DNA from: an uncultured Acidobacteriota bacterium
GTDB lineage: Bacteria; Acidobacteriota; Blastocatellia; RBC074
NCBI GenBank assembly: GCA_963813345.1
Contig: CAWEYR010000010.1
Location: 70,592 to 134,591, forward strand
Reading direction: 5' to 3'
Length of the DNA stretch: 64,000 nt
A model generated the notes under the pieces. That model ran no database searches and was not told the DNA's origin. It saw only the letters and a list, made by a program, of their open reading frames with translations. The translations under genes were made by a program, and so were the position numbers. Each line of letters begins with the position of its first letter. Position 1 is the stretch's first letter. Shown here piece by piece: positions 7,621 to 55,814 of this stretch.

Positions 7621-9127
7621 TTACCCTGGAGTCTCTTTCTCTGCGCCTTTGATGGTTTTCATCGTGCTGCTCCCAACCTTGCCTGGATCGCCGCCGTTCA
7701 AACCATATGGCGGGAATCGTCGTCTGTCGGAAAGCAGAGAAACTCGAGCGGGAACCAGCACCTCTATCTCACGCACGACTCCGTCGCCGCCGCGGAACCT
7801 TCCATTTCCGCCCGATCCGCGGCGAATCTGATAGCGCCGGACCCGCATCGGATATGCATATTCGAGCGCTTCAACCGGTGTATTGAGCGAGTTCGTCATG
7901 TGTGTATGAACAGCTGAAAGACCATCTCCTGATGGCCTCGCCCCCATTCCGCCTGCGATTGTCTCGTAATACGAGAATTCACGTCCCTGATGTGCGTCCC
8001 AGCCGCCAATCGTCAGATTGTTCATGGTTCCTTGTGACGCTGAAGGGATCCGCGAGGGCGCAGCCTGTGAAAGCGCCTTGAAGAGTACGTCAACGATGCG
8101 TTGCGACGTCTCAACGTTTCCGCCAGCCACCGGCGCTGGTGGCTTCGCGTTGACAATTGTCCCCTCCGGAGCGATCACTTCGATCGGAGAGATTACTCCG
8201 GCACTCGCGGGCACATCACCAGCGATAAGACAGCGGAAGACGTAGTAAACCGCTGAAACCGTGATCGCCTCCACGGCGTTTATGGGACCGTTCACCTGCG
8301 CTGCGCTTCCCTGTGAAATCGACTTTCGCACGATCTCCCTTGATCTCGATCGTGACTCTGATTGGAATCGCATCGGCGCTCTCACCATCATCATCGAGTG
8401 CATCTTCCGCGCGATATATACCATCCGGCATCTCCGAGATTGCCTTTCGAGAGAGCCTCGCAGCGTAGTCAATTAGATGTTTCGCGTACTCACGCACTTC
8501 AGCGATGCCATACTCCTCGACAATATTGAGTATCCTCTCGGTGCCAACTCTCAAGGCCCCAAGCTGAGCCGCCAGGTCTCCCTCGCGCTCTTCGCGTCCG
8601 CGCACATTTGCAAGAAAGAGGCCCAGCAGTTCCAGATCAGTTACACCTCCGCGCGCGAGATGTACGGGAGGAATCCTCAAGCCTTCCTGGTAGATTTCAG
8701 TCGCTGCTCCCATCGAACCCGGGGTCGAACCTCCGATGTCGGCGTGATGGGCGCGGTTTGCAACATAAAAAAGGGGGCCGCTCTGCGATCGGCGAGCAGC
8801 GCGTGAGATTCCAAACACTGGAGCCACAAGAGTGACATCCGGCAGGTGCGTGCCCCCAGCGTAAGGATCATTCAGCATGATCACATCGCCGGCGTTCAGT
8901 TCGCAGCTGGCGATCGCAGCGCTCACCGACATCGGCATCGATCCGAGGTGAACCGGCATGTGATCACCCTGCGCAATAAGCCTTCCGGCGCCATCAAAAA
9001 CGGCGCATGAATAGTCTCGCCGTTCCTTGATGTTTGGAGAAAAGGACGCCCGGCGCAAACTCAAACCCATTTCCTCGGCTACCGAAGTAAACAGGCATCG
9101 AAAAATTTCGAGGCGAATTGAATCCAT
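7621..9127 (-). CDS. hyuB: Hydantoinase B / 5-oxoprolinase subunit (HyuB family); frameshift near 8310-8325
   Basis: ORF 8216..9127: MDSIRLEIFRCLFTSVAEEMG...DHMPVHLGSMP...LNDPYAGGTHLPD. ORF 7621..8472 in another frame: GPINAVEAITVSAVYYVFRCL...YYETIAGGMGARP...GGDGVVREIEVL. The junction is ...VDFTGKRSA then QVNGPINA. Confidence 0.85.
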
Positions 9128-11449: not shown

Positions 11450-11511
11450 AGAACCCGGGAGCGCCAGGCTCCAGCCTGGCGAATGTCTGTCACGCGCCAG
11501 GCTGGAGCCTG
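11445..11511. repeat. Family C palindromic repeat (CCCGGGAGCGCCAGGCTCCAGCCTGGCG ... CGCCAGGCTGGAGCCTGGCGCTCCCGGG)
   Basis: Near-perfect 28-bp inverted arms with an 11-bp spacer. The second copy is at 16897..16986. It overlaps the last codons of hyuA. Confidence 0.8.
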
Positions 11512-13589
11512 GCGCTCCCGGGCGAATTGCGATTCAGGATCAAATTTCGCCAGGCGTCGACTCGAGCGCGCCATCGCTCGGGAAGCCACGTCGTTGAGCC
11601 ATACTCGACAATGATCGCAGGTGATTCAATTACTTCACCCGGTGAGAAACGCTCGCGATTGTAGACCGCAACTTGTCTCAATCTCGTGCCTACGACTGCC
11701 GATGCACGGTGTGACGGCGTCGCTCGCCTCGCGGCCTTCATTCTGGCTTTAGGTAGGTCGGGTTTTTGCGTGATTCCGTTCGCCCTGAGCCTCAGCGTCA
11801 CAATCTCGATTTCGCGAAGTGGGTCACTGTGCCCATAGCGCTCGAGATGAAGACGGTTGAATTCGCCTATTGGATCACCCGCACCACGGTACTTCGAGCT
11901 CAAAGGACTGACCGCGATAACGCATTGAAAAGGATCTGACCAAATCAGTTTCGCGCCGGGTAAACCCCTCTACTCGAAGATCCGCATGCGCCTTTCTTTC
12001 AAGTCTCAGAAACCTTCGTTCGAAATCAGCACCGAGCGAGTCACCGGCTTTCACCCTCACCATCAGTGTCTGGCTGTAATCTTTCACGACATCGGCAAGA
12101 AGCACACCGAGCGCAGAAAAATTCCCCGGGTCGATCGGAACAATGACTCGGGAGATTCTGAGCGCGTCCGCCAGCGCTACGGCATGCAGCCCGCCTGCGC
12201 CTCCAAAGCTCATCAGAGAAAATAGTCGCGGATCGTGCCCTCGCTCAATTGAAACGAGTCTCAATGCCTGCTCCATGTTCAGATTTGCAACTCGCACGAC
12301 ACCAAGAGCGGCCTCTTCGATACTGAATTTCCGGCTCGAGGCGCGCGCAAGCTCCTTTGCCAGCCTGGCCTAGCGCTGTTCGCGAACGCTCGACATCGAG
12401 CGGCATAGAGTTGGATAGCAGTCCCACCCCGCCAAAGCGGCCAAGGATCAGATTCGCATCGGTGACAGTCGGTTGATCGCCGAGGCCGTAACAGGCGGGT
12501 CCCGGATCAGCTCCCGCCGACTGCGGACCTACACGTAAGGCGCCTCCAGCATCGACTCTCGCAATCGATCCGCCTCCTGCACCCACAGTGTGAATGTCGA
12601 GAACCGGAACAGCGACGGGCAAGCCTGCAAGTATCGCCTCATTCGTGGTTATAGCCTTGCCGGTGGAGAGTGACACGTCGGTCGAGGTGCCACCCATATC
12701 GAATGTAATAACTCGCTTGAAGCCGGCTTGCTTACCAATTGCAAGTGCCGCAACGACTCCGCCGGCTGGACCAGACAGGATGGTCCTAACCGGCTCGCGA
12801 GCTGCTTGCTGAGCGGATATCGACCCACCCGACGATTGCATGATTCGGACGCGTGGCCGGTGCCGGTTCCCTTCAGTAGTGTTCAATCCTTGTTCGAGGT
12901 TGCTCAGATATCGTCCGACTTTCGGCACGAGATAAGCATTGATGACAACGGTAGAAGTCCGCTCATATTCCCGATATTCCGGGAGAATCTCATGAGAAAG
13001 GGAGATATGGACTCCAAGGTCTGAGAGAGCTTTTGCGAGCACGGTCTCATGAACCGGGTTGGCAAATGAAAAGAGCAGACATACGGCAATCGATTCCACG
13101 CGAGCACGTTTCAGCCGCTCACGAAGTTGCGGCAAGAGCTGCCAGGTTGAGATCGTCGAGAATAGAACCATCTGAGGCGATACGCTCGGCAATTCCGAAA
13201 CGCAGATTCCGGGGGACCAGCGGGGAGCGGCGCTCTACGTTCAAGTTATAAAGATCGGGCCGTGCCTGGCGGCCAATCTCGATAACGTCCTCAAAACCCG
13301 CCGTGGTGATAAGCGCCGTGCGAGCCCCTTTGCCCTCGAGAAGAGAATTTGTACCGACAGTCGTGCCGTGCGCGATTTCAATCGCGAGCCCTGGTGGGAC
13401 CGCGCCGTCAACCTGTTTGTCTGCAATCAGTTTGATGATGCGATCGACACCGGCAATAATCGACTTTTCGGGATGACGTGGGGTGGAAGGGAGCTTAAAG
13501 GCGATCCGTTGACCCTTCCAGGTCGCAACGAAGTCGGTGAACGTGCCGCCAGTATCAATCCCTATCCGTAAGTTCAATTGTGTTATCAT
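11490..13589 (-). CDS. hyuA: Hydantoinase A / 5-oxoprolinase subunit (HyuA family); at least 3 frameshifts
   Basis: Four consecutive minus-strand ORFs in different frames (13119..13589, 12245..13192, 11875..12297, 11490..11903). In order they give MITQLNLRIGIDTGGTFTDFV...HGTTVGTNSLLEGKGARTALITTAGFEDVIEIGRQ; ...SIAVCLLFSFANPVHE...FDMGGTSTDVS; ...ERGHDPRLFSLMSFGGAGGLHA; ...FNRLHLERYGHSDPLREIEIVTLRL. Confidence 0.85.
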
Positions 13590-14967: not shown

Positions 14968-15101
14968 TGCTGAGTGCTGGTGCGGGTGCTGGGTGCTGAG
15001 TATGGAGTTCAAGCTTTAGCTTGCCGTCTGCAATGCATTGCGAACGAGCAAGCTAAAGCTTGAACTCCATACTCAGCACTCAGCACTCAGCACTCAGCAC
15101 T
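14968..15101. repeat. Family A palindromic repeat with GTGCTGA/GGTGCTG heptamer flanks
   Basis: Left flank: about 5 heptamers. Core: GAGTTCAAGCTTTAGCTTGC (15005..15024) ... GCAAGCTAAAGCTTGAACTC (15049..15068). Right flank: 4 x TCAGCAC. Confidence 0.85.
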
Positions 15102-15110
15102 CTCTTTGAA

Positions 15111-16791: not shown

Positions 16792-16896
16792 TTAGGTCTC
16801 CTGGGAATCGGTGAAGATCTCCTTTGCGCTAACTCTAGCCCTGATGGGCGATTGACGCCAGACCCACGAGCGTATGTTCGTAGCCGAGAGTCCGTG

Positions 16897-17015
16897 GGAG
16901 CGCCAGGCTCCAGCCTGGCGCGTGTCAATGTCGCTAAGGCGTTCGGCGATGATGACTGCGCCAGGCTGGAGCCTGGCGCTCCCGGGCGCTGGCGCTCCCA
17001 GGGCGGTACAGCGTA
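16897..17015. repeat. Family C palindromic repeat followed by a Family B half-site (GGCGGTACAGCGTAGC)
   Basis: GGGAGCGCCAGGCTCCAGCCTGGCG ... GCGCCAGGCTGGAGCCTGGCGCTCCCGGG, then CGCTGGCGCTCCCAGGGCGGTACAGCGTA. Compare 32866..32901. Confidence 0.8.
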
Positions 17016-17109
17016 GCTTTACTTGCGGTTGCACCATTCTGTGCTAGAATGACGCTGTCCGTCCCCGCAGAATGCCAAGACGAGTTCTATCTTTTTACGT
17101 TTCAGGGGA

Positions 17110-18553: not shown

Positions 18554-19203
18554 AGATGTGGGGAATACTCTTCCAGAGCCGTTTTCTGCGGAAGGCGCTC
18601 TAAGCAGCGCCAAAGTACATCCTGCATTCTAACCGACAAGATGCTAAGTTCAAACCGTTGTCACTGGTGGTGACTCGGTTACTTCGAAAAACCTACTCTC
18701 TCCCGTTCGCGACCACTTTACAAACACAGTTCAAAAAAATGAGGTTGGTGTGAGCCAATTCGCCGCAAAATTTCGCCTTCCCGATTGAGACCGCAGGCAA
18801 CAGGTTAGTTGCCTCGCGCAGTGGTGAAGCCGTTGGCCAAGTGTCAATGCCATTTCAAGAAAACGCAGGCTGGTGAGCTTCCACCGTGCCAGACAGCAGA
18901 CCAGAGTTATTGGCCTGCAAAGGAGAAGATCATGTTTGTGGAAATCATGGGAATCTTCCTGTTGTTCAGCGCCAGCTTCTTACCGTCCACGACCCAATCA
19001 GATGGCGGATTGACCTCCCCGAAGCGCGTCGAGCAGCATCGCATCGTTACGCGTCCTGACCTCTCTCACGAGTACTTGCTTAACCCAGCTAGTTCCGGCT
19101 GCCCAAGCTGCCGCCCCCGTTGAGATTTCAATGGGGTACGTGCCGGGACGAGTATGAGACCCCGCATTGAACCAAAACCAGTTCGCGATAGGAGGATGTA
19201 TCG

Positions 19204-21164
19204 TGAAAAAGAAGATAGACCACATCACCAACCCAATCACTCTTGCAATCGTCATAGCCGGATTGGCGGTCGCGCTGCCGCTGTCGACAGTGAGCGCGAG
19301 GTTTTCTACGTCCGCGCAAGCCGCTAACAGATATTCAGACGAATCCACTCTCTTGCAGGATTCGCTGCAGGAAGCCGTGGCGGACACGCGCTACGAGGCG
19401 CGTTGGGAAGAAAGACCGGCGAAAGGCATGTTGCCGTCCGCGTACCACGCGCCCAACCCCGCGCAGCAGTATGACGCGTATTTCACACCGAACGGCTTAA
19501 GCCTCACGCCGCAAGTGACCGCGCCGAATGACGCTATGCCGAAGTGGCGAGTGGGAATGAGGCTCATCGGTTTCGGCTATGGAGAGGATCTCCTAAATGT
19601 GGGTACAGCTGCGATAGAGACGCACGGCGCCAGAATTGAGTACCGCCGGACCTGGCTGCCGATTACCGAGTGGTACGTCAACAAGGCCGCGGGGCTGGAG
19701 CAAGGCTTCACCATCGACACTGCGCCGGGAACAAAGTCAGAGCGCGAGCCGTTGAGGCTGGCGTTAGAACTGACAGGCGACGTGAGCGCGGAATTGGCGA
19801 ACGGAGGGCAAAGCATCGTCTTCAAACTAGCGGACGAGAAACCAGCAGTGACCTATAGCGGCCTGTATGCCTATGACGCGCAAGGCCGAGAACTGCCGTC
19901 CGAGATGAATCTGAGCAAGGGGCAGGTGATTCTCGAGGTGGATGACGAGAATGCAATTTATCCGGTGACGATTGATCCCACTTTTAGTGTGCAGACGAAA
20001 ATAGTCCACCCCTTTGCTGCGAGTGATCCCGAGTTTTCTGGTAGTTCGGTTGCTATTTACGGCAACACTGTCGTGGTCGGCGCGCCGAGTAAAAATGATG
20101 GTGCTAACGTCAATCAAGGCGTGGCGTATGTACTCACGTATTCCAATAATGTCTGGGGCCACCAGGCGACACTTCGGCCTAGCGATGGCGCGACCGATGA
20201 CCATTTTGGCGTCTCTGTTGCGATCAGCGGTAATACTATCGTGGTGGGGGCGCGTCACGCTGACGTCAATTCCAACAGCGATCAAGGCGCGGCTTACGTG
20301 TTTGTGCGCAACGGCGGCATTTGGACCGAACAACAAAAGGTAACCGACTTTTTTGGCGGAATGGCTCAAGATCGCTTCGGCACTTCTGTTGCCATCAGCG
20401 TAGATACATTGGTGGTGGGGGCGGACCCCTTCCCACGTCAAGGCGCGGCGTATGTGTTCGTGCGCAGCAGCGGCGTTTGGAGCCCGCAACAAAAACTGAC
20501 AAACAGCACCGGAACGACCTATGACATTTTCGGCGTCAGGGTCGCCATCAGCTTGAATACTGTGGTGGTGGGTGCGGCGCAGGACACGATTGGCTTCAAC
20601 TCGCCGCAGGGCTCGGCCTACGTCTTCGTTCGCAACGGAACCGTTTGGAACCAGCAGGCCAGGCTGATTGCCGGAGACGGAGCGGCCGGCGACCAGTTCG
20701 GGTTCTCAGTAGCCATTAGCGGAGATTCGGTCGTAGTCGGCGCGCCTTTTGATTCTGTCGGGACCAACTCTCTTCAAGGTTCGGCCTACGTTTTTACGCG
20801 TACCCTCTCGTCATGGAACCAGCAGGCAAAACTAACTGCGAGCGATGGGAAGGTTGGTGACTATTTCGGCTGGTCGGTCGCCATACACGGTTATACGATC
20901 GTGGTGGGAGCGCCTCATGACGACGTGCAGAGCTCTCAGCAGGGTTCTGCCTATGTGTTCGTGCAGACCGGCCAAATCTGGAGTCAGCAACAGCAGCTTA
21001 CCGCCTTTGACGGGTGGGCTTCCGACAAGTTCGGCACCTCAGTAGCCACCAGCGCCGGCGCGATCGTGGTAGGGGCGCCTTTGGATGACTTTCCTTATGG
21101 GGCCTGCCGTCCCTGGTGCAACAGCTCTGCTGACCAAGGCTCAGCCTACGTATTCAGACAATGA
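19204..21164 (+). CDS. Secreted FG-GAP / integrin-alpha-like beta-propeller repeat protein
   Basis: GTG start with signal peptide MKKKIDHITNPITLAIVIAGLAVALPLSTVSA. About 280-aa unknown N-domain, then seven repeats of about 60 aa (QGxAYVFxRxGxxWxQQxKLxAxDGxxxDxFGxSVAISGxTxVVGAP). Confidence 0.8.
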
Positions 21165-29978: not shown

Positions 29979-30650
29979 ATGAAAGACAGTGCTGACGCCA
30001 TCATTCGTAGTGAACAGGCTGGTTATCTGAGCGGCCTGCTTCCACCGCGCGATTCCCTGCTCAGCGAAATGGAAGCCTATTCGGCCGAGAATCACGTTCC
30101 CAGCTCCGATCCAGAGGTCGCGCTGTTTCTCGCGATTACGGCCCGGGCGATGAAGGCCCGGCGCGCCCTCGAGGTGGGCACTGCCATTGGTTACGGCGCG
30201 ATTGTTATGGCACGCGCGATGGGTGATGACGGAAAGGTCACGACGATCGATCCGAGCGAAGAGCGAATCGCGACCGCGCGCAATTTTATTGCAAGGGCCC
30301 AGTTGACGTCACAAATCGAGATCGTCAAAGGCAAAGCGCTCGACATCATCCCAAAACTCGACCCGGGCTTCGATCTGGCCTATATCGACGCGGTCAAAGA
30401 GGAGTATACGGATTATCTGAACGTCATCGTTCCGAAGATGAGGATCGGCGGGGTAATCGTTGCCGACAACGTCCTCTGGAAGGGTCAGGTTGCCAGCGGC
30501 AACCTCCGTTCTCCTGACCAGGAGTCGTCCACAAACGCATTGCGTGACTTCAATCAGGTCTTTACAACCCATCCGCAGCTCAATTCAATCATTCTTCCAC
30601 TTGGAGATGGCCTCGCATATGGAATCAAGATCGCAGGCATTGGCAGCTGA
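29979..30650 (+). CDS. Class I SAM-dependent O-methyltransferase (family 3, caffeoyl-CoA OMT/YrrM-like)
   Basis: LEVGTAIGYGAIVMARAMGDDGKVTTID...FDLAYIDAVKEEY...GGVIVADNVLWKG. The start is chosen at MKDSADAII. The upstream part of the ORF overlaps the sigma-factor gene. Confidence 0.75.
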   Translation: MKDSADAIIRSEQAGYLSGLLPPRDSLLSEMEAYSAENHVPSSDPEVALFLAITARAMKARRALEVGTAIGYGAIVMARAMGDDGKVTTIDPSEERIATARNFIARAQLTSQIEIVKGKALDIIPKLDPGFDLAYIDAVKEEYTDYLNVIVPKMRIGGVIVADNVLWKGQVASGNLRSPDQESSTNALRDFNQVFTTHPQLNSIILPLGDGLAYGIKIAGIGS

Positions 30651-31635
30651 CGCTACCGCCCCTGAGGTGTCGATCGAAGGGATACAGTCGGCGCGCGACG
30701 TGGTCTATCGTCATATCGAGCGCACGCCACTCGGAAGCTATCCCCTTCTCGACGCGGCGCTTGGGACTCGAATTCTCGTGAAGCACGAAAACCATCTGCC
30801 GACAGGCGCGTTCAAGATTCGGGGTGGGCTCAACTTTCTGCATCACTTCAGCACCGCGCGGACTCACGATGGAGTCATCACCGCCACGCGCGGTAATCAC
30901 GGGCAATCGATAGCGCTTGCAGCAAGCCTCTTCAACACTCCATCAACGGTCGTCGTTCCCTTTGGCAATAATCCGGAAAAGAATGAGGCAATGCGCGCTT
31001 ACGGTGCGCGGCTCATCGAGTTCGGCCGTGACTTTGATGAAGCGCGAGAAGAAGCCGAACGCCTGGCCGCAAGCGAGAATCTGCGGAACGTACATCCGGC
31101 CAATGAGCCTGTGCTGATAAACGGGGTAGGAACTTATGCTCTCGAGATCGTCGACTGGCTGAAAGCACGGAACGAAACTCTTGATGCGATTTTTGTTCCG
31201 ATCGGTCTCGGCAGCGGTATCTGCGGAGTGGCTACGGTCTTCAAAGCGCTTTCGCCTGAGACAAGAATCATCGGAGTTCAGGCGGAAGGTGCACCGAGCA
31301 TATTCCTCTCGTGGCAGGCCGGTCACGCGGTTTCGACGCCCGGGGCACATACAATGGCGGATGGAATTGCAACGCGCGTGCCGGCCGAGCTGACCCTGGA
31401 TATCATTCTGAAAAAAGTTGATGAAGTGATGCTGGTCAGCGAAAGCGAGATCATTCGCGCGATCAGGCTGATCTGGCGGACGACACACAACCTGGTCGAA
31501 GGTGCCGCAGCAAGCGCTGTTGCAGCCGCCGTCAAGTCGAAGGAGAAGCTCAAGGGGAAGACGGCAGGCTGCGTGCTGAGCGGCGCCAATCTCGACTCAG
31601 CTACGATCGCTACCGTGTTTTCAAGACTGGATTGA
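30607..31635 (+). CDS. PLP-dependent threonine/serine dehydratase family protein (copy 1, intact)
   Basis: LVKHENHLPTGAFKIRGGLNF ... GNHGQSIALAASLF ... SGANLD. The start at MASHMESRS overlaps the OMT 3' end. Confidence 0.75.
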   Translation: MASHMESRSQALAADATAPEVSIEGIQSARDVVYRHIERTPLGSYPLLDAALGTRILVKHENHLPTGAFKIRGGLNFLHHFSTARTHDGVITATRGNHGQSIALAASLFNTPSTVVVPFGNNPEKNEAMRAYGARLIEFGRDFDEAREEAERLAASENLRNVHPANEPVLINGVGTYALEIVDWLKARNETLDAIFVPIGLGSGICGVATVFKALSPETRIIGVQAEGAPSIFLSWQAGHAVSTPGAHTMADGIATRVPAELTLDIILKKVDEVMLVSESEIIRAIRLIWRTTHNLVEGAAASAVAAAVKSKEKLKGKTAGCVLSGANLDSATIATVFSRLD

Positions 31636-31646
31636 TCCCAACGCCT

Positions 31647-31762
31647 GGGAGCGCCGGCCTCCGGCCGGCCACGAGCCGCGAAGCGTGCGAGTCGTGGAGA
31701 GTCCTTGTGCTGAAGACTCGCACGCTTCGCGGCTCGTGGCCGGCCGGGAGGCCGGCGCTCCC
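31647..31762. repeat. Family D 116-bp palindrome (GGGAGCGCCGGCCTCCGGCCGGCCACGAGCCGCGAAGCGTGCGAGTC ... GACTCGCACGCTTCGCGGCTCGTGGCCGGCCGGGAGGCCGGCGCTCCC)
   Basis: Near-perfect inverted halves. Terminal GGGAGCGCC/GGCGCTCCC shared with Family C. Second copy at 32766..32882. Confidence 0.85.
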
Positions 31763-31792
31763 AGGCGCGCTGCAAGGTACCTAAGTTCTATT

Positions 31793-32832
31793 ATGCTTAC
31801 ATTCGACGATATTCTTGCGGCGCGCACACGCATTGAAGGAGTCGCGCATCGCACACCAGTGATCACATCGCGACAATTCAATCGCGACGCCGGGTGTCAG
31901 GTCTATCTTCAAATGCGAAAACCTTCAGCGCGCTGGCGCCTTCAAGTTTCGTGGTGCCTACAACCGGATCGCGTCGCTCAGTCCTGAGGAACGCAAGCGT
32001 GGAGTCCTTGCCTACTCTTCCGGAAATCATGCTCAGGCTGTTGCCCTCGCTTCGAGCCTCTTCGACATTCACGCGACGATTGTCATGCCAGAAGATGCTC
32101 CGCGTTTGAAGGTCGAGGCGACGCGCAGTTATGGTGCGGAGATCGTTTTTTACAACCGGTACACCGAGAACCGTGAAGAGACCGGCGAACGTCTTAGCAG
32201 GGAGCGGGGACTCGCTCTTGTACCACCTTACGACGACTATGCCGTTATGGCTGGCCAGGGAACGGTGGCACTCGAGCTTCTTGAAGAGGTGCCGGGTCTC
32301 GAATATCTGCTGGTGCCGGCGAGTGGCTGCGGGCTTCTGGCCGGATGCGCAACTGCAGCCAGACATATGATGCCTGGTATTCCGCATTTACGGAGTCGAA
32401 CCGGAAGCTGGAAATGACACCTGGCAATCGTTTCGCAAGGGTGAGCGTGTCGAGATAGCAGTTCCAAAAACGATCGCCGACGGACTGCAGACTTCAGCCC
32501 CCGGCAAACTGACATTTCCGATAGTCAAGGAACACGTCAACGATATCCTGCTTGTCAGCGACAACGAACTCATTGAAACATTGAGTTTCATTCTGCAACG
32601 CGCAAAGGTTCTTGTTGAACCTTCAGGGGTTGCCGGCGCTGCAGCCGTCCGTCACCAGAAACTGGATTGCCGCGACGCTCGTGTTGGTGTCGTACTGTCT
32701 GGCGGAAACGTAGATCCCGAGAAACTCTCACAATACCTGGTAGCAACGGGCATTAGTAGTGCCGCTGGGAGCGCGGCTCCGGGCCGGCCACGAGCCGCGA
32801 AGCGTGCGAGTCGTGGAGAGTCCTCGTGCTGA
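31793..32832 (+). CDS. PLP-dependent threonine dehydratase paralogue (copy 2), disrupted by frameshifts near 31909 and 32385; 3' end runs into repeat
   Basis: MLTFDDILAARTRIEGVAHRTPVITS...GCQVYL in frame 2. KCENLQRAGAFKFRGAYN...SSGNHAQAVALASSLF...LVPASGCGLLAG in frame 0. YGVEPEAGNDTWQSF...LVEPSGVAGAAAV...VLSGGNVDPEKL in frame 1. Each junction is consistent with a single extra C. Confidence 0.7.
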
Positions 32833-32901
32833 AGACTCGCACGCTTCGCGGCTCGTGGCCGGCCCGGAGGCCGGCGCTCCCAGGGGCGGTACAACGTACC
32901 C
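32766..32901. repeat. Family D palindrome (copy 2) followed by Family B half-site (GGCGGTACAACGTACC)
   Basis: About 95% identical to 31647..31762, in the same orientation. Followed by CAGGGGCGGTACAACGTACCC, as at 16987..17015. Confidence 0.85.
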
Positions 32902-32983
32902 TTTGGACTTCATGCCTTAGCTTTGCACTTCTCCTCGCCAAAAGATAAAATGGCAGTCTTTGGCTCGTGTTCCTGAAATCCCT

Positions 32984-33847
32984 ATGTCCTGGTTCAAGCG
33001 CAAGGACGAAAAGATTGTTGACATAACGCCGCCCGAAGAGCGAACGGTAAAGACTGAAGGCATTTTCGCGAAATGCGAGAATGAGCAATGCGGCGCAACA
33101 ATCTATCGAAAAGACCTCCGCGCAAACCTTAGTGTCTGTCCACAGTGTGCCTATCACTTCCGGATCACTGCGCGCGAACGTCTGCAATTGCTCTTCGATA
33201 ATGGAGAATACGAAGAGCGCGACCGGGACATCGCGCCAACCGATCCGCTCGGCTTTGTTGATCAGTCGTCTTACCTCGATCGCCTCAAGCGAAGTCAGAA
33301 GACGACAGGGCTCCTTGATGCTGTCATAATCGCTGAAGGCAAGCTTTCCGGCCGGAAGCTGGTAATCGCTGCCATGGAGTTCAACTTCATCGGTGGCAGC
33401 ATGGGCTCAGTAGTAGGTGAGAAGATTACACTTGCGATCGAGTATTGCCTTGAAAAGCGGTTACCGCTGCTGATTGTGTCATGTTCCGGCGGAGCGCGGA
33501 TGCAGGAAGGAGTTCTCTCGCTCATGCAAATGGCGAAGATATCCGCAGCGCTTGCGCGACTGGATGAGGCTCGTTTGCCTTATATCTCGCTTATGACGAA
33601 TCCCACTACCGGCGGAGTCACCGCCAGTTTTGCAATGCTGGGTGATCTGAACATTGCTGAACCCGGAGCGATTATCGGCTTTGCAGGCTCGCGCGTGATC
33701 GAACAGACGATCCGGCAGAAGCTTCCCAAAGGATTTCAACGCTCTGAATTTCTGCTGGATCATGGAATGCTTGACGCTGTTGTAGACCGCCGGCAGTTGA
33801 AGGAGTTTCTTTCAAAAGCGCTTCTATTTGCCGGTCCCGACGCCTGA
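32984..33847 (+). CDS. accD: Acetyl-CoA carboxylase carboxyltransferase beta subunit
   Basis: MSWFKRK... zinc ribbon CENEQCGATIY...CPQCAYHF, then the carboxyltransferase core GGSMGSVVGEK...SCSGGARMQEG. Intact. Confidence 0.9.
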   Translation: MSWFKRKDEKIVDITPPEERTVKTEGIFAKCENEQCGATIYRKDLRANLSVCPQCAYHFRITARERLQLLFDNGEYEERDRDIAPTDPLGFVDQSSYLDRLKRSQKTTGLLDAVIIAEGKLSGRKLVIAAMEFNFIGGSMGSVVGEKITLAIEYCLEKRLPLLIVSCSGGARMQEGVLSLMQMAKISAALARLDEARLPYISLMTNPTTGGVTASFAMLGDLNIAEPGAIIGFAGSRVIEQTIRQKLPKGFQRSEFLLDHGMLDAVVDRRQLKEFLSKALLFAGPDA

Positions 33848-33849
33848 GC

Positions 33850-34880
33850 ATGCCTCGAATCCCTCGAATGCCTTCAATGACCACGGCTACGACGATCCTT
33901 TTCTTCGTGATTTCTTTTATCTCGCCGGCATGCCCGAGCAGCCAATCGAAAGGATCAAGTGCTGAGACGACTCCTGCCCCGGCTGCGACTGCGGAGACAA
34001 AGTCACAGTCGCAGACGCGCACGACTCCCTTTGATGCAGATCGCGCATTTGCTCATGTCAAAGCGCAGGTCGACCTCGGTCCACGGCCAGCAGGGTCGAC
34101 CACACTCGAAAAGGCGCGGGAATATATTACTGCGCGAGCTCAAGAGCTACGGTTTGCCTGTTTCTTTAGTGGAGTTTCAGGCGAAGACACCGAAGGGCAA
34201 AGTGGCAATGAAGAACATCATTGCCGAGCTTCCGGGAAGCTCGCCGGAAGTCATCATTCTTGCCAGCCATTACGATACAAAGCCGTACAATGAGTTCACA
34301 TTCGTCGGAGCGAATGATGGCGGATCGAGCACTGGAGCGCTTCTTGAGATAGCGCGCGTGCTCAAGCAACAGGGGCCGCGGAAGTTCACCTATCAGTTCG
34401 TGTTCTTTGATGGCGAGGAAGCATTCTGCGAAGGCTGGAGCGAGTGCCTGGGTGGCAAGGACAATACCTACGGCAGCCGGCACATGGCAGATCAGCTTCG
34501 CGCTACAGGACAGCTGAAAAAGATCAAGGCTCTTATTCTTCTCGATATGATCGGAGACAAGGTATCTGACGATACCACGCGAGCAGAGCTCTACTGGCTG
34601 GCTGGTAGACTCGATCTGGGGAACAGCAGCAGAGCTCGGATATCAGAAGGAGTTTCCGAGCCGCACGTTTGCGGTTGGCGATGACGATCATATGCCCTTC
34701 ATCCGCGCCGGCATACCGGCTGTAGATATTATCGACCTTGAGTATGGTGTAGGTCTGGAGGACAATCGTTACTGGCACACAAAAGAAGATACACTTGATA
34801 AGCTCAGCCCCCGCAGTTTGAAAATCGTGGGAGACATAGTGATCCTGAGCCTCCCCAGGATCGAGTCGCAGATCCGCTAA
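33850..34880 (+). CDS. M28 family peptidase (lipoprotein); two frameshifts near 34130 and 34660
   Basis: Lipobox-like FISPACPSS. Three ORFs in three frames: FDADRAFAHVKAQVDLGPRPAGS...; HYDTKPYNEFTFVGANDGGSSTGALLEIARVL...FFDGEEAF...LLDMIGD; MPFIRAGIPAVDIIDLEYG...YWHTKEDTLDKL. Confidence 0.75.
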
Positions 34881-35477: not shown

Positions 35478-35570
35478 TTGGAGTGCGGCGACCTGGCGCC
35501 GCTTCAGCTTGCTCCTTCGGATTACGTGCGTCGCGAAGACTCAAGCGGCGCCAGAGACGCCGCACTCCAA
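35478..35570. repeat. Family E palindromic repeat (TTGGAGTGCGGCGACCTGGCGCCGCTTCAG ... TCAAGCGGCGCCAGAGACGCCGCACTCCAA)
   Basis: Inverted arms of about 30 bp. Second copy at 43940..44027. Confidence 0.75.
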
Positions 35571-35586
35571 TTGGCGCTCCCAGCAT

Positions 35587-38771: not shown

Positions 38772-41640
38772 CTATAACTGGGTGGCGGCCACCTTTTCGG
38801 TAATGTAGGCTTCGATCACGTCGCCCACCTTGTAGTCGTTGAATCTTTCGATCGTAATTCCGCATTCAAAGCCCTGAGCAACTTCGCTCACGTCATCCTT
38901 GAAACGCCGCAGACTTCCAATCGGAGTATCAAAAATCACCACACTGTCACGAATCAGACGGCCTCGCGCCGTTCTCTTTATTGATCCGCTGGTGACCATG
39001 CATCCTGCAATGTTGCCGATCTTGGGAACCCGGATCACGTCCCTGATCTCAGCCTTGCCGATGACGGTCTCCTTGATCGTCGCGTCCAGCATCCCGATCA
39101 TCGCGGCACGAATCTCTTCCTCAACCTTATAGATGATCGAGTGAAGCCGGATATCGACGTCTTCCTGCCTTCCGACCTCGTCGGCGCGCGCCTCGGGGCG
39201 AACGTTGAACCCAATGATGACCGTCGCCGCACCTGCCGTCGTCACGTTAGACGCACTTGCGAGCAGAACATCGGACTCGGTGATCGCTCCAACGCCGGAA
39301 CGAATAATCCGTACCTTGACGCGGTCCGTCGAAAGCTTGACCAGCGTATCCTTGAGAACCTCGACCGAACCCTGGACGTCGGCCTTCAGAATCACAAGCA
39401 GTTCCTTGACCTCGCCTGCCTCGAGTTGCGCATGCAACTGATCGAGACCGCGCGCCGCTGTGCGCGAAAGCGCCTGCATTCGTGCTTTCGATTGACGAAA
39501 CTCTGAAATCTGCTGCGCCTTCGTAATGTCGGTTACGGCCTGGAATTGATCTCCGGCCGATGGAACGCCCTGAAGTCCAAGCACTTCAACCGGCGTCGAT
39601 GGCCCGACTTCCTGCACCTGACGTCCGCGATCATCGATCAGCGCCCGCACGCGCCCGAAGAAATTGCCGACGATGAACGGATCGTGGATATGCAGTGAGC
39701 CGTTCTGTATGAGCAGCGTCGCAACCGCACCACGACCGCGATCCAGCTTGGCCTCGAGCACAGTTCCCGTCGCCAGTCGTTTGGGATTCGCCTTAAGATC
39801 GAGAATGTCGGACGTCAACAGGATCATCTCGAGGAGCGAATCAATGTTCTGGTTCTTCTTCGCTGAAACCTCAACCATCGTAGTCGTACCGCCCCAGCTG
39901 TCCCAAAGCAGACCTCGATCCGCAAGCTCCTTCTTGACTCGTTCAGCATTGGCGTCGGGTTTGTCGACCTTGTTGATCGCAACAACGATCGGAACGTTGG
40001 CAGCCCTCGCGTGTTCGATCGCCTCGATCGTCTGAGGCATTACTCCGTCATCCGCCGCGACCACGAGCACAACAACGTCCGTGACCTTGGCGCCGCGGGC
40101 ACGCATCAGTGTGAACGCTTCGTGACCCGGCGTGTCCAGAAACACGATGCGGCGTTGTTTGGTCGGATCATCGGGATTGGTCACGTCGACTGCATAGGCT
40201 CCGATGTGCTGAGTTATCCCGCCAGCTTCACCTTCAGCGACGCGCGCCTTCACGAATCGCATCGAGCAGGCTCGTCTTGCCGTGATCGACGTGTCCCATG
40301 ACTGTCACCACGGGCGCGCGCGTGTCAGTATCTTCCATCGCCTCAGGCGTGACTTCGAATTCTGACTCGATCGTCATGTCTTCGAACGCACCAACCGAAA
40401 CGTCGAATCCGAACACTCGGCCGATTTCCTGCGCTACGTCAGGATTCAGCGTCTGGTTGATGGTCGCCATAATGCCGCGTTCAAAGAGCAGCGAAACCAC
40501 ATCTTTCGGTTTGACTTCGAGCTTGTCAGCGAACTCGCGAACCGTCGTTCCTTCGACCACACGAATCGGCTTGAGGTCTGTGGGAATCACGCGGACCTTT
40601 GGAGGCACGATCGGTGTCGGCCCTCTGCGGGACGATATCTTGAGCTGATGTCCTTCCTGGCGGTCTGGCTGACCTCCGCGCGGTCGCGTGCTGTGCCGGC
40701 CCTTATGCCGCGTGTCTTTCGGCGGTATATAGACGCTTCGCTGTTGTGCCCCAGAAGGCAGTAAGTGAGGTTCGCTACTTGCTGAAGCGTCGGTTCTGAC
40801 ACTGCGCGTCAGACGCTCTTGGAGGTTGCCGGTCGATCGAGTCCCCGGTAGTACTCGTTCTGGGCGACGTGGATGTCGTCGAGCGACCCGCAGTCGTCGC
40901 GGGAGTCCGCGCCGCTGGAGTTGCCGTCGGAGACGCGGGTGGCCGTGGCCGCGGTGTCAGCCTGATCACACTTGTCCCAGCGGTCCGATCCGGAACTCGT
41001 GGCGGATGCGCAGGGGACAACGGTCGCGATGAAGGAGTCGGCGTAGCAGGAGGCGTAATTGTAGTTTCGGTTGTAGTGGTCGCTGGAGCCGGTTCAACGG
41101 GCGCGGTCTCTGCCTCAAGCGCCGGCGCTTCCGCCGCGCAGCAGCAGGCTCGATCTCGACCTCTTCAGCCTCTTCGACCTCGGGCTCGATAGGGACCAAA
41201 GGTGCCGTATCAGGAACAGCAGCAGGAATCGGAGCCGGAGCTGGCGGTTGAGGAACAAGCTTCACGACGCGCGCGCGAGGCTGTTCGATAGTCTGAGTCG
41301 ATGGCGCCGCCTCTACCTGCGGAACGGGAGCGGCTTCCACGACTTCGGGCTCTTGTGCTGGAGCGGCAGCCGACCCTTCCGCCGTTGGAAGCGGTGCCGT
41401 CTGCTTAACAGTCTTGACGAGGCGCGCCGTGCGATGAATGTTCGGAGCGTCTTTCTTCGGGTAGTAGGTTTCCCGAATCTTCTCGGCAATATTATCGTCG
41501 AGCGTGTTCGATGGCACGCTGACATCGACGCCGAGCCGTCGCGCGTCTTCAAGCACCTTGCGGTTCTCGAGCTTCAATTCTTTGGCTAACTCGTAAATTC
41601 TGACCTTGCCCATGGATTCCTTTGAGGCTGCATCATTCAC
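38772..41640 (-). CDS. infB: Translation initiation factor IF-2 (at least 3 frameshifts: about 40260, about 40610-41150)
   Basis: N-terminus MGKVRIYELAKELKLENRKVLEDARRLGV (40966..41640). G-domain VTVMGHVDHGKTSLLDAIR (40234..40608) continues as VAEGEAGGITQHIGAY...DTPGHEAF...NKVDK in 38772..40262, through the C2 beta-barrel to the stop. Confidence 0.9.
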
Positions 41641-43309
41641 GCCTCGGTTTTCTGTTCAAGCTCATTTTCGTGGACGGCCTCAGACGGGATCTCGTCCTCG
41701 GCGCCCACGCTCACAGCTTTTTCATCGTGTTTTTCCTCAGAGACTTCGGCTGATTCAGTCGTTGCTTCAGCTTCAGTCTTTAGGTTGTTGTCGATCTCTT
41801 CGGCTTCCGATTGCTCGTTCACCGATACTTCATCTACTGGCTGCTCCTCAGGAGCTTCCGATTCATCTGGCGCGGTCGACTGCTCGAGAGCGCCCTGTTC
41901 TTCATCTTCAGCTACGACGACTTCGCCTTCGCCCTCGCCCTCACCGCCTTCGTCTGCCCTCGACCGTTTCGCCCGCAGCGCCCTCTTCGAGTACGCCTTC
42001 TTCACCAAGCTCGGCTTCCTGAGCCTTTGCCGCGCGTGCATCTGCGATAGCGCGAGCATCGTCAATCAGGTCCTCAGCATCATCGAAGCTCAGATCCAGC
42101 CAGTCGCACAGATCGTCGACAGCAACCTCCGCAAGTTGTTCGATCGTTTCGACACCGTGCTCAGCGAGGAGCTCAGAATCGGATGAGTGTAATCCCTTCG
42201 ATCAGTGTCAACGGGACAACCGGTGCGCTGATGAGACGCTCCATCTGCTGAGCGATCTCCCGTTTCATCTCCTCTTCACTGCGGATATCGATGTCCCAGC
42301 CGACGAGCTTGGCGGAAAGTCTGACGTTCTGTCCCCGTTTTCCGATAGCCAGGCTCTGTTGATCAGTCTCGACAGTCACCTGAAGTTTCTTGTTCTCGAA
42401 GTCAAGAACCGTCACGCGACTGACTTTGGCTGGGGAGAGTGCGTTGGCGGCAAAGATCGCGGGGTCTTCGGACCATTCGATGATATCGATCTTCTCACCC
42501 CTGAGCTCGCGAATGATCGATTGGACTCGCGATCCCTTCATTCCAACGCAGGCGCCGACCGGATCCACGTCTCTTTCATTCGAGACAACAGCGATCTTGG
42601 CGCGTTCGCCGGGCTCGCGAACGGCTGCCTTGATGACGACCGTTCCATCATAGATCTCAGGCACTTCCATCTCGAAAAGGCGCTTGATGAGCTCGGGGCT
42701 CGTTCGCGACACTTCCACCTGCGGGCCTTTGGCTTCGCGATGAACTGTGGAAATGACAACACGAACGCGTTCACCCTGGGTGAACGTCTCGTTGCGCGAT
42801 TGCTGCTGCTTCGGCATGACTGCTTCGATAGTGGAACCCAGATCGATAATGATCCGCCCACCTTCAAAGCGCTTCACATAACCGTTGATCAGTTCGCCTA
42901 CGCGTCCGATGTACTCCTCGTAGACGTTGTTGCGTTCCGCTTCGCGGACTTTCTGAAGGATGATCTGTTTGGCAGTCTGGGCGGCGATGCGTCCCAGGTC
43001 TTCCATCGGCCTCGGCAACTCGAGAAGATCGCCGACTTCAGCACCCTCTCCGACCTCGACATTGGCTTCTTCTACTGTCATCTCGCGCGCTGAATCAGCG
43101 ACCTCGTCGACAACAGTCTTGACTGCGAACAGTTCGACGGTGCCGTTCTCGAGGTTGTATCGCGCGTGTAGATCTTCTCCGGACTTGAACTGCTTTCGCG
43201 ATGCAGTCACAACCGCATCCTCGATCGCCGAGATAATGATCTGCGAGTCGATGTTCTTTTCCTTGCTGAGAAGCTCAATGTTCTGTGCAATTGAACTCAG
43301 AGTGTTCAT
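41637..43309 (-). CDS. nusA: Transcription termination/antitermination factor NusA with long acidic C-terminal tail (2 frameshifts near 42190 and 42065)
   Basis: S1/KH core in ORF 42173..43309. AR-type segment SDSELLAEHGVETIEQLAEVAVDDLCDWLDLSFDDAEDLIDDARAIADARAAKAQEAELGEEG in a second frame (42065..42190). Acidic tail EGEGEGEVVVAEDEE...ENELEQKTEA in ORF 41637..42065. The stop overlaps the infB ATG (ATGA). Confidence 0.85.
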
Positions 43310-43939: not shown

Positions 43940-44027
43940 TTGGAGTGCGGCGGCTTGGCGCCGCTTTAGTCTCCTGCAGAATGATCCGATCGGGAGACTA
44001 AAGCGGCGCCGAGCCGCCGCACTTCAA
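43940..44027. repeat. Family E palindromic repeat (TTGGAGTGCGGCGGCTTGGCGCCGCTTTAGTCTCC ... GGAGACTAAAGCGGCGCCGAGCCGCCGCACTTCAA)
   Basis: Outer arms match the 35478..35570 copy. The inner stem differs. Confidence 0.75.
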
Positions 44028-47267: not shown

Positions 47268-47427
47268 AGTGCTAAGTGCTGAGTGCTGAGTGCTGAGTGC
47301 TGAGTGCTGAGTGCTGAGTGTTGCAGTCTGAGTTCAAGCTTCAGCTTGCTGATCTGCGATATCCCATAGACAGCAAGCTGAAGCTTGAACTCCATACTCA
47401 GCACCCAGCACTCAGCACTCAGCACTT
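47268..47427. repeat. Family A palindromic repeat with asymmetric GTGCTGA heptamer flanks (7 left, 4 right)
   Basis: (GTGCTGA)x7 + GAGTTCAAGCTTCAGCTTGCTG (47330..47351) + 19-bp loop + CAGCAAGCTGAAGCTTGAACTC (47371..47392) + (TCAGCAC)x4. Best-preserved copy. Confidence 0.9.
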
Positions 47428-47462
47428 CTTCGGGCCTTTAAAGTTTGGTAGACTCAACGGCG

Positions 47463-55616: not shown

Positions 55617-55660
55617 CTTCGAAAGAATAACACGCGACCATAGGCAACTATTCCGAAGAA

Positions 55661-55814
55661 GGGGTCGGTGGTCAGTGGTCAGTGGTCAGTGTGAGTTCAG
55701 AGCTTCAGCTTGCTCTCAAAGATCGAGCTGCTAACGACAGACAAGTCTAAAGCTTCGAACTTCCATGACACTGACCACTGACCACTGACCCCTGACCCCC
55801 GACCCCCTCCCCTG
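55661..55814. repeat. Family A palindromic repeat (degenerate core) with GGTCAGT heptamer flanks and C-run tail
   Basis: GGGGTCGGT(GGTCAGT)x3 + GTGAGTTCAGAGCTTCAGCTTGCTC ... GTCTAAAGCTTCGAACTTC + (ACTGACC)x3 + CCCTGACCCCCGACCCCCTCCCC. Confidence 0.8.

Follow-up and report, generated by a model that had tools for sequence, protein, structure and literature searches.

Organisation of the locus

We report on the intergenic palindromes in a 64-kb stretch of DNA (contig CAWEYR010000010.1; the window, below, is the whole of this stretch), a core chromosomal region of an uncultured Blastocatellia-type acidobacterium, and in particular on two copies of one repeat family, family D, that flank the second of two adjacent dehydratase genes. 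The genes of the window are ordinary chromosomal ones and include hydantoinases, a DUF3500 protein, a VWA protein, an extracytoplasmic function (ECF) sigma factor with a kinase, accD, infB, nusA, nusB and ribH; no transposase, of the Y1 type or any other, was found in the window. Palindromic loci of all families number approximately 19, all of them outside conserved coding sequence; they are similar to repetitive extragenic palindromic sequences (REPs) and bacterial interspersed mosaic elements (BIMEs), and represent at least five families.

Dehydratase 1 (30607..31635, plus strand) is an intact pyridoxal phosphate (PLP)-dependent threonine dehydratase of the PRK06110 type (373.8 bits, cut-off 317). 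It is followed by dehydratase 2 (31793..32832, plus strand), a threo-3-hydroxy-L-aspartate ammonia-lyase-type paralogue that scores 458.3 bits with PRK07048 (cut-off 452) after repair of its two single-base insertions; PRK06110 and PRK07048 are different NCBIfam equivalogs. Downstream lies accD (32984-33847), preceded by a predicted promoter-like site (32922..32951, plus strand) within a block that is conserved in the two closest relatives found, L121 (95% identity) and L122 (88%), and whose start immediately follows the variable repeat segment. Both relatives have the identical gene order, methyltransferase - PALP - PALP - accD.

Two family D palindromes flank the second dehydratase gene

The first family D copy (D1; 31642..31767 when extended, with a 116-nt core at 31647-31762) is a palindrome, CGCCTGGGAGCGCC...GGCGCTCCCAGGCG, that occupies the spacer between the dehydratase genes, starting 9-11 nt past the dehydratase 1 stop codon and ending approximately 30 nt ahead of the dehydratase 2 ATG (31793). 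The second (D2; 32767..32881) overlaps the 3' end of dehydratase 2, the reading frame of which runs approximately 22 codons into the repeat before it stops at a TGA (32830-32832) in the D2 loop. D1 and D2 are 95% identical (112/118 positions) in direct orientation against 103/121 in reverse, and they are therefore in the same orientation, as defined by the asymmetric 21-nt loop. An earlier, preliminary description of this DNA had already placed two roughly 95% identical, equally oriented copies on either side of dehydratase 2, in agreement with these data; its start for D1 (31647) is correct, that for D2 (32766) one base early.

Within D1, the left end is a D-type REP-like unit (31647..31671, plus strand) with a foot, GGGAG, and a hairpin, GCCGGCC-TCC-GGCCGGC, the inverted partner of which lies at 31738-31762. 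Between them is an inner palindromic core (31668..31741) with inverted arms CACGAGCCGCGAAGCGTGCGAGTCG around the 21-nt loop GTGGAGAGTCCTTGTGCTGAA. The left 9-mer of D2 is degenerate (GGGAGCGCG). In both copies the arms are 33-36 nt long and 100% complementary, and folding as single-stranded DNA predicts -84.9 kcal/mol (z = -15.3) for D1 and -80.2 kcal/mol (z = -13.9) for D2; the left arm of D1 folded alone gives two small hairpins.

D2 is followed by the right half of a family-B REP hairpin together with a second small hairpin (32882..32900; AGG-GGCGG-TACAACGTACC), and a possible left half of family B, GTGCCGCT, is present at 32759-32766. The 30-nt junction of D2 and the B half-site is 100% identical to positions 379-408 of L044, a locus from an Acidobacteriota metagenome-assembled genome (MAG).

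Families C and D end in a common foot-plus-hairpin unit

In the window, the 9-mer GGGAGCGCC is found 10 times, its complement included, against an expectation of 0.95; none of 100 dinucleotide shuffles reached that count. Nine of the sites are within or beside intergenic palindromes (11457+/11511-, 16896+/16975-/16991-, 31647+/31754-, 32873- and 35573-), which bears out the earlier proposal that families C and D share their terminal 9-mers. The tenth, at 20906, is a chance occurrence inside an FG-GAP repeat gene (19167-21164) whose 665-aa product is encoded with seven tandem repeats of approximately 165 nt.

In total, nine C/D half-units are present at five intergenic sites. One family C doublet (11454..11522) consists of two inverted GGGAG-CGCCAGGCT-CC-AGCCTGGCG units, 11 nt apart, with a predicted fold of -45.7 kcal/mol (z = -12.7). 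The other (16893..17017; DNA fold z = -10.2) combines a doublet at 16896-16983 with an extra GGCGCTCCC iteration (16991-16999) and a B right half-site (17000-17017), and is positioned between divergent gene starts, not at a 3' end. Its B half-site (AGGGCGGTACAGCGTAGC) and that after D2 (AGGGGCGGTACAACGTACC, 32882-32900) are near-identical, the latter having one extra G. The preliminary description had also noted a B half-site after both elements. The fifth site is a lone C/D terminal half-site (35573..35583, minus strand; GGCGCTCCCAG) which abuts a family-E palindrome (35480-35568).

The unit shared by the two families is thus GGGAG-CGCCAGGCT-CC-AGCCTGGCG in family C and GGGAG-(C)GCCGGCC-TCC-GGCCGGC in family D, and every C and D element is bounded by two such units in inverted orientation. 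The common terminus is a REP-like unit in which a GC-rich hairpin comes after a conserved foot, (Y)GGGAG, that is single-stranded. Each of the four doublets (11457-11519, 16896-16983, 31647-31762 and 32767-32881) folds as one hairpin with z between -10 and -15, and no direct repeats (target-site duplications) were seen by inspection at any of them.

We scanned a genome collection with the pattern GGGAGCGCCRGSCTCC, which gave at least 120 matches, mostly chance ones in GC-rich genomes; approximately 20 among the matches listed are genuine units. A perfect stem of at least 6 bp follows the 9-mer in 46 of the 188 scorable occurrences in the window and the gathered loci, again among the matches listed. 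In C-type units from many genomes the variable triplets are perfectly complementary in 24 of 28 cases (GGG/CCC in 13, AGG/CCT in 10 and GAG/CTC in one). The pattern searched for did not include the 3' half-stem, and the triplets vary in a compensatory manner, with foot and loop fixed. L093 has a bare single hairpin, CCTGGGAGCGCCGGCC-TCC-GGCCGGCGCTCCCAGG. Genuine units are present in an Acidobacteriota MAG that shares several repeat families with the window (L044, L052 and L093), in a Planctomycetota MAG with contigs often ending in the unit (L002 and others), and in single Chlorobiaceae, Hydrogenedentota, Verrucomicrobiota, Desulfobacterales and proteobacterial MAGs.

The Planctomycetota MAG, SOY_64_metabat_319 (L002, L005, L015, L035, L045, L064 and L105), has many contigs that begin or end in CCGGGAGCGCCGGGCTCCAGCCCGGCTC with purine/pyrimidine-rich spacers next to it, a sign of copies so numerous that the assembly breaks at them. 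The C/D foot and loop recur in an unrelated phylum.

The other families have units of the same general form: GGAGT-T-CAAGC-TTYA-GCTTG in family A, GTAC-CGCC-TTCA-GGCG in family B and GGAGT-GCGGCG-...-CGCCGC in family E. Palindromes of family A (14968-15102, 47268-47430 and 55658-55809 in the window; 9873-9995 in L122; 5500-5640 in L044) are flanked symmetrically by heptamer arrays, either (GTGCTGA)n/(TCAGCAC)n or (GGTCAGT)n/(ACTGACC)n, that recall the short tandemly repeated repetitive (STRR) heptamers of cyanobacteria. Family-E palindromes (GGAGTGCGGCG...CGCCGCACTCC) are found downstream of genes at 35480-35568 and 43940-44027, and the first of these forms with the lone half-site at 35573-35583 another composite junction. 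The C/D terminal motif, (C)TGGGAGCGCC / GGCGCTCCCAG, is iterated two to three times at several places (L121 9820-9965, L122 13543-13694, L052 7474-7607 and window 16975-16999), often symmetrically on both sides such that the whole structure stays self-complementary.

Dispersal, exchange of cores and turnover between relatives

Scanning metagenomes with 21 nt of the D core arm identified three family D copies at unrelated loci in independent assemblies. Two are complete and >90% identical to D1 (L128, inverted, and L133), and the third (L124) is partial, with the left terminal unit, the left core arm and a degenerate right arm but no right terminal unit. Termini of the D type also surround a different palindrome, an E-like doublet (GCGGCG-CTTGT-CGCCGC), in L052 and L122, where extra iterations of the terminal motif are present on both sides. 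The earlier idea of one C/D superfamily with exchangeable cores is in keeping with these elements. The same elements occur in independent assemblies, and a fold-back-read assembly artefact as the origin of the palindromes was rejected on this ground.

Comparison with the two closest relatives revealed turnover at three spacers. Between the dehydratase genes the window and L121 both have a D element, and L122 has a pure (GTGCTGA)n heptamer hairpin. Between dehydratase 2 and accD, D2 and the B right half in the window correspond to a family-A doublet in L121 and to an intact family-B hairpin in L122. In the DUF3500/VWA spacer, the window has a C doublet with GGGCGGTACAGCGTAGC on the right and a degenerate GAGTCCGT on the left, and L122 an intact B doublet. 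In both window cases with family B remnants the C/D element is at the position of the B hairpin loop (CCGCC-TNNA-GGCGG), and the D copies in L124, L128 and L133 are preceded by (GTA)CCGCC. That C/D elements occupy the B hairpin loop where L122 keeps B intact explains the half-sites, and suggests that C/D doublets land in, or replace, B hairpin loops. The composite nature of C/D and B elements, which the preliminary description had deduced from the half-sites, is also seen in this way. D1 is old, being shared with L121; D2, to judge from the aligned spacers, appears to be a lineage-specific arrival into a family-B hairpin.

We also looked for features other than repeats. A terminator scan detected none at D1 or D2, neither of which is followed by a T-tract, and an intrinsic (Rho-independent) terminator role was rejected on the lack of a T-run. 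No Rfam family matched in the window at gathering thresholds, and the D-bearing loci gave sub-threshold matches to miRNA hairpins alone, taken as spurious. Neither the terminal unit nor the D core was found in viral contigs, and a phage origin was dropped.

REPs of Escherichia coli are known as mRNA 3'-end stabilisers, terminators and protein-binding sites. The palindromes might likewise be non-mobile structures (mRNA 3'-end stabilisers, Rho-dependent or atypical terminators, or protein-binding sites) that are selected by the host and diversify in place, an explanation to which this precedent, the extreme stability of the hairpins, the location of D1 only 9-11 nt after the dehydratase 1 stop and the position of the elements upstream of the conserved accD promoter-like block all lend weight. 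We nevertheless find it unlikely: near-identical D copies are present at unrelated loci in different assemblies, at one site unrelated families take each other's place between relatives of 88-95% identity, the C copy at 16896 is between divergent gene starts, and neither T-tract terminators nor Rfam matches at gathering thresholds were obtained. A structural role could, however, hold alongside mobility.

The inner core of family D resembles class 3 Y1 transposase units

The interval between the terminal units of family D holds a further perfect palindrome, whose arms read CACGAGCCGCGAAGCGTGCGAGTCG. Class 3 TnpA-Y1 genes are mainly found in Planctomycetes, Acidobacteria and Proteobacteria, and are flanked by atypical structures with a CnGA foot, of which Solibacter usitatus has approximately 600 copies (Quentin et al. 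2018, PMC6006769). The published units (PMC6006769, Table S1) include CACGAGCCGGAAGCGTGAGCGACGGGT in Planctomyces limnophilus and CnGAGCCGCGACCGTNAGGGAGCG... in Solibacter and Legionella. Aligned with the P. limnophilus unit, the D arm agrees at 17 of 18 positions, with one gap, and it has GAGCCG..A..GT in common with all published class 3 units. Its foot is ACGA (CCGA in L124) and its predicted fold is (((((..((((.....))))..))))).

The D arm thereby shares with class 3 units a CnGA foot and GAGCCG(C)GA..GT, the predicted shape of a stem, a 2x2 internal loop and a stem, and the host phyla (Planctomycetes, Acidobacteria and Proteobacteria). It differs from them in that the D units form a perfect inverted pair inside another REP doublet, in the 3' half of the unit, and in that no class 3 gene was seen near D. 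These similarities suggest, as a lead and not as proof, that class-3-type units form the D core, as a doublet that lies within the spacer of a doublet of the C/D type.

A dispersed repeat of approximately 170 nt in other organisms (L125-L127, L129-L132 and L134-L137) contains 24 nt of the D core, ACGAGCCGCGAAGCGTGCGAGTCG, with CCGCGCCCCAAGGGGCGCGG-type hairpins on its flanks; pilin genes and IS5/IS66-like open reading frames (ORFs) lie close by. This repeat may be another host of the class-3-type CnGA unit.

The dehydratase genes are ancient paralogues

The preliminary description gave, as a plausible origin, a repeat-mediated tandem duplication of the dehydratase gene; in this model, recombination between the D copies would have duplicated the gene, with one copy now decaying. 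The arrangement invites this idea, with repeats that are 95% identical, equally oriented and 1.1 kb apart bracketing one of two adjacent PALP-family genes, and with frameshifts in copy 2. However, the two proteins share 32% amino-acid identity over 319 residues (with the two insertions in copy 2 removed) and match different equivalogs, and the genes are 56% identical at the nucleotide level as compared with 53% for shuffled sequence, which is too divergent for a recent duplication. Each copy is 88-95% identical to its own orthologues.

The tandem pair is present in all five relatives examined, with no single-copy arrangement among them. In addition to L121 and L122, these are three farther genomes (72-74% identity) in which the PALP-PALP tandem is kept with spacers of 13, 65 and 58 nt and in which no C/D palindrome is present in the spacer. 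Homologues of gene 2 are abundant across Blastocatellia and other Acidobacteriota. Moreover, the repeats bracket copy 2 alone and not a duplicated unit, and D2 is missing from L121, the closest relative. As the copies are closer to their orthologues than to each other and the pair occurs in all the relatives, dehydratase 2 does not qualify as a recent tandem duplicate. We consider a D-D recombination origin extremely improbable; the two genes have distinct functions and are ancient paralogues that have stayed in tandem throughout the class.

Dehydratase 1 was correctly described as intact, and its alignment with the L122 orthologue stays in one frame. Dehydratase 2, which had been called degenerate, does have two +1 frameshifts, which alignment with L121 and L122 locates to one additional base near 31902-31906 and another near 32380. 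Outside these it is 87-89% identical to the L122 orthologue (conserved domain) and has no stops or other damage. Frameshifts are not confined to this gene: infB (38772-41655) is frameshifted, with one shift between the G-domain motifs GHVDHGKT and GGITQHIGA, hydantoinase A (11490-13589) has three shifts, the M28 peptidase gene beside accD (33883-34877) has two, and hydantoinase B (7621-9127) is also split. Relative to L122, 4 of 9 genes compared are frameshifted, with approximately 8 shifts in approximately 9.5 kb. Since the essential infB and other genes of the window are affected too, we regard the assembly as indel-rich and probably based on long reads, with two shifts in a 1-kb gene within expectation; the frameshifts in dehydratase 2 are probably sequencing errors or an assembly artefact.

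A genuine pseudogene, inactivated in this lineage and perhaps after D2 disrupted the 3' end, would account for the two frameshifts together with the repeat-encoded tail of approximately 22 codons, and neither inserted base is within a long homopolymer. We hold this to be distinctly unlikely in view of the 87-89% identity to the L122 orthologue with no other damage, the shifts in 4 of 9 compared genes, one of them in the G domain of the essential infB, and two orthologues (P0002 and P0003) that likewise end in a REP hairpin (...DSA and stop; GAT TCC GCC TGA) and are intact in other respects.

The stop codon of dehydratase 2 in L122, as in P0002 and P0003 (all ending ...DSA), is the TGA in the loop of a family-B hairpin (10960-10984 in L122). 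REP elements thus supply stop codons here, the B hairpin in the orthologues and the D2 loop in the window. The frame of hydantoinase A also seems to stop (11490-11492) in the spacer of the C doublet at 11457-11519.

Comparison with known repeat systems

REPs, BIMEs and REPINs (REP doublets forming hairpins) have units in which a short foot, conserved and unpaired, precedes a GC-rich hairpin of 7-10 bp, form inverted doublets that fold as one long hairpin, are extragenic and often located right past stop codons, occur as several families per genome and in mosaic or composite clusters, and insert with no target duplication. The C/D elements are alike in all these respects. They differ in having a conserved stretch of 9 nt that extends into the stem, in that no gene for a REP-associated tyrosine transposase (RAYT) was found in the window or the more than 130 gathered loci, and in their host, a Blastocatellia-type acidobacterium; REPIN-RAYT systems have been characterised mainly in Gammaproteobacteria (PMC5581495).

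Among published REPs the nearest to the D terminal unit are those of subclass 2.7 (PMC6006769). GTAG-CGCCGGC-CTCCGT-GCCGGCG resembles it, and the units of Desulfomonile (GTAGCGCCGGCCTCCGTGCCGGCG) and Solibacter (GTGGGGCAGCCATTCCTGGCTGTC) have a CGCCGGCC-TCC-... stem and loop nearly as in D, the difference being in the foot. Neither GGGAGCGC nor GGCTCCAGCC had an exact match in Table S1 of PMC6006769 or in the searchable literature; the same applies to the GGGAGCGC(C) unit. No papers on REPs in Blastocatellia were found in the literature searched. The joining of a REP unit to an unrelated stem-loop, as in D, has a parallel in Pseudomonas, where composites of a degenerate GTAG unit and an unrelated stem-loop are present in hundreds of copies (Di Nocera et al. 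2013, PMC3733652).

Two further comparisons concern the sites that the elements occupy. The insertion sequences IS1397 and ISKpn1 target REP hairpins, and here too one repeat seems to land in the hairpin of another, B half-sites flanking the C/D elements; the inserted object is, however, a non-coding palindrome and not an insertion sequence (IS), and loop targeting is deduced from two cases. Palindromic elements of Rickettsia insert into gene ends, and D2 similarly supplies the C-terminal codons and the stop of a gene.

Origin and spread of the C/D elements

As a whole, the C/D palindromes are probably best explained as REP/BIME/REPIN-like elements, a conclusion in which we have reasonable though not high confidence. 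The assignment to this anatomy follows from the conserved foot, the covarying hairpin, the inverted doublets and the extragenic position. Two inverted terminal units give a REPIN/BIME-like doublet that forms one long hairpin; family D is such a doublet with its spacer occupied by a second, unrelated palindromic doublet, this place being taken by an E-like doublet in other copies. In the model that we propose, a RAYT/TnpA-REP-like Y1 transposase, with its gene in another part of the genome, would move or copy the elements in the form of single-stranded hairpins. Insertion would leave no target duplication, and the elements would preferentially land within or next to REP hairpins already present a short way downstream of genes. 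The order of nesting would be the B loop, then the C/D doublet and then the inner core. Dehydratase 2 would have a D copy on either side because its intergenic flanks both serve as landing sites.

Several results speak against this explanation or parts of it. A Y1 transposase was absent from Pfam scans of approximately 30 ORFs of the window, and neither tblastn with E. coli RayT nor a scan of all six-frame ORFs for the HUH...Y motif gave a match in the window and the more than 130 gathered loci. The C/D foot is (Y)GGGAG(CGCC) and not GT[AG]G; the bases ahead of GGGAGC are CT, CC or GT, with GTGG solely at the copy at 16893. The B-loop insertion is drawn from two comparisons of filled and intact sites, in error-prone sequence and with degenerate left half-sites, the conservation of the 9-mer across phyla is partly imposed by the search pattern, and the short class 3 match could be due to chance, roughly estimated at 1 in 100. 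Membership in a RAYT-associated family cannot be claimed and is unproven, given the non-canonical foot and the searches for a Y1 transposase.

The C/D elements might instead be miniature inverted-repeat transposable elements (MITEs), that is, non-autonomous derivatives of DDE-type ISs with GGGAGCGCC... as terminal inverted repeats mobilised in trans. Their inverted termini, variable interiors, dispersal and differing presence between relatives would all suit a MITE. However, the termini are self-folding foot-plus-hairpin units with a covarying stem, a signature of REPs rather than of terminal inverted repeats, single bare hairpins and lone half-units exist (L093 and 35573), and target-site duplications were found at none of the four window copies. 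Furthermore, a transposase with matching ends was not seen in any locus gathered. For these reasons we regard a MITE origin as very unlikely.

A broader possibility, which we put forward tentatively and with more doubt than belief, is that the (Y)GGGAGCGCC-foot hairpin represents an uncatalogued REP superfamily that spans phyla (Acidobacteriota, Planctomycetota, Chlorobiota, Verrucomicrobiota, Hydrogenedentota, Desulfobacterota and Proteobacteria). Its doublets would act as carriers for class-3-type CnGA units or E-type units and would insert into B loops; one or more unstudied Y1 transposases would drive this hierarchical, loop-targeted nesting, and REP loops would routinely give adjacent genes their stop codons.

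Our analysis removes a false lead, in that the dehydratase pair is no recent duplication and dehydratase 2 probably no pseudogene, and it cautions against a biological interpretation of frameshifts and apparent pseudogenes in this assembly. REP/BIME-type repeats are here documented for Blastocatellia, soil bacteria that form a major group but have been little studied, and the comparisons of filled and intact sites suggest that palindromes of the REP type nest inside one another. Through the D core, an intergenic palindrome is further linked at the sequence level to the little-known repeats of class 3 Y1 transposases. If the cognate transposase is found, the lineage would be useful for studies of REP mobility and target choice outside Gammaproteobacteria.

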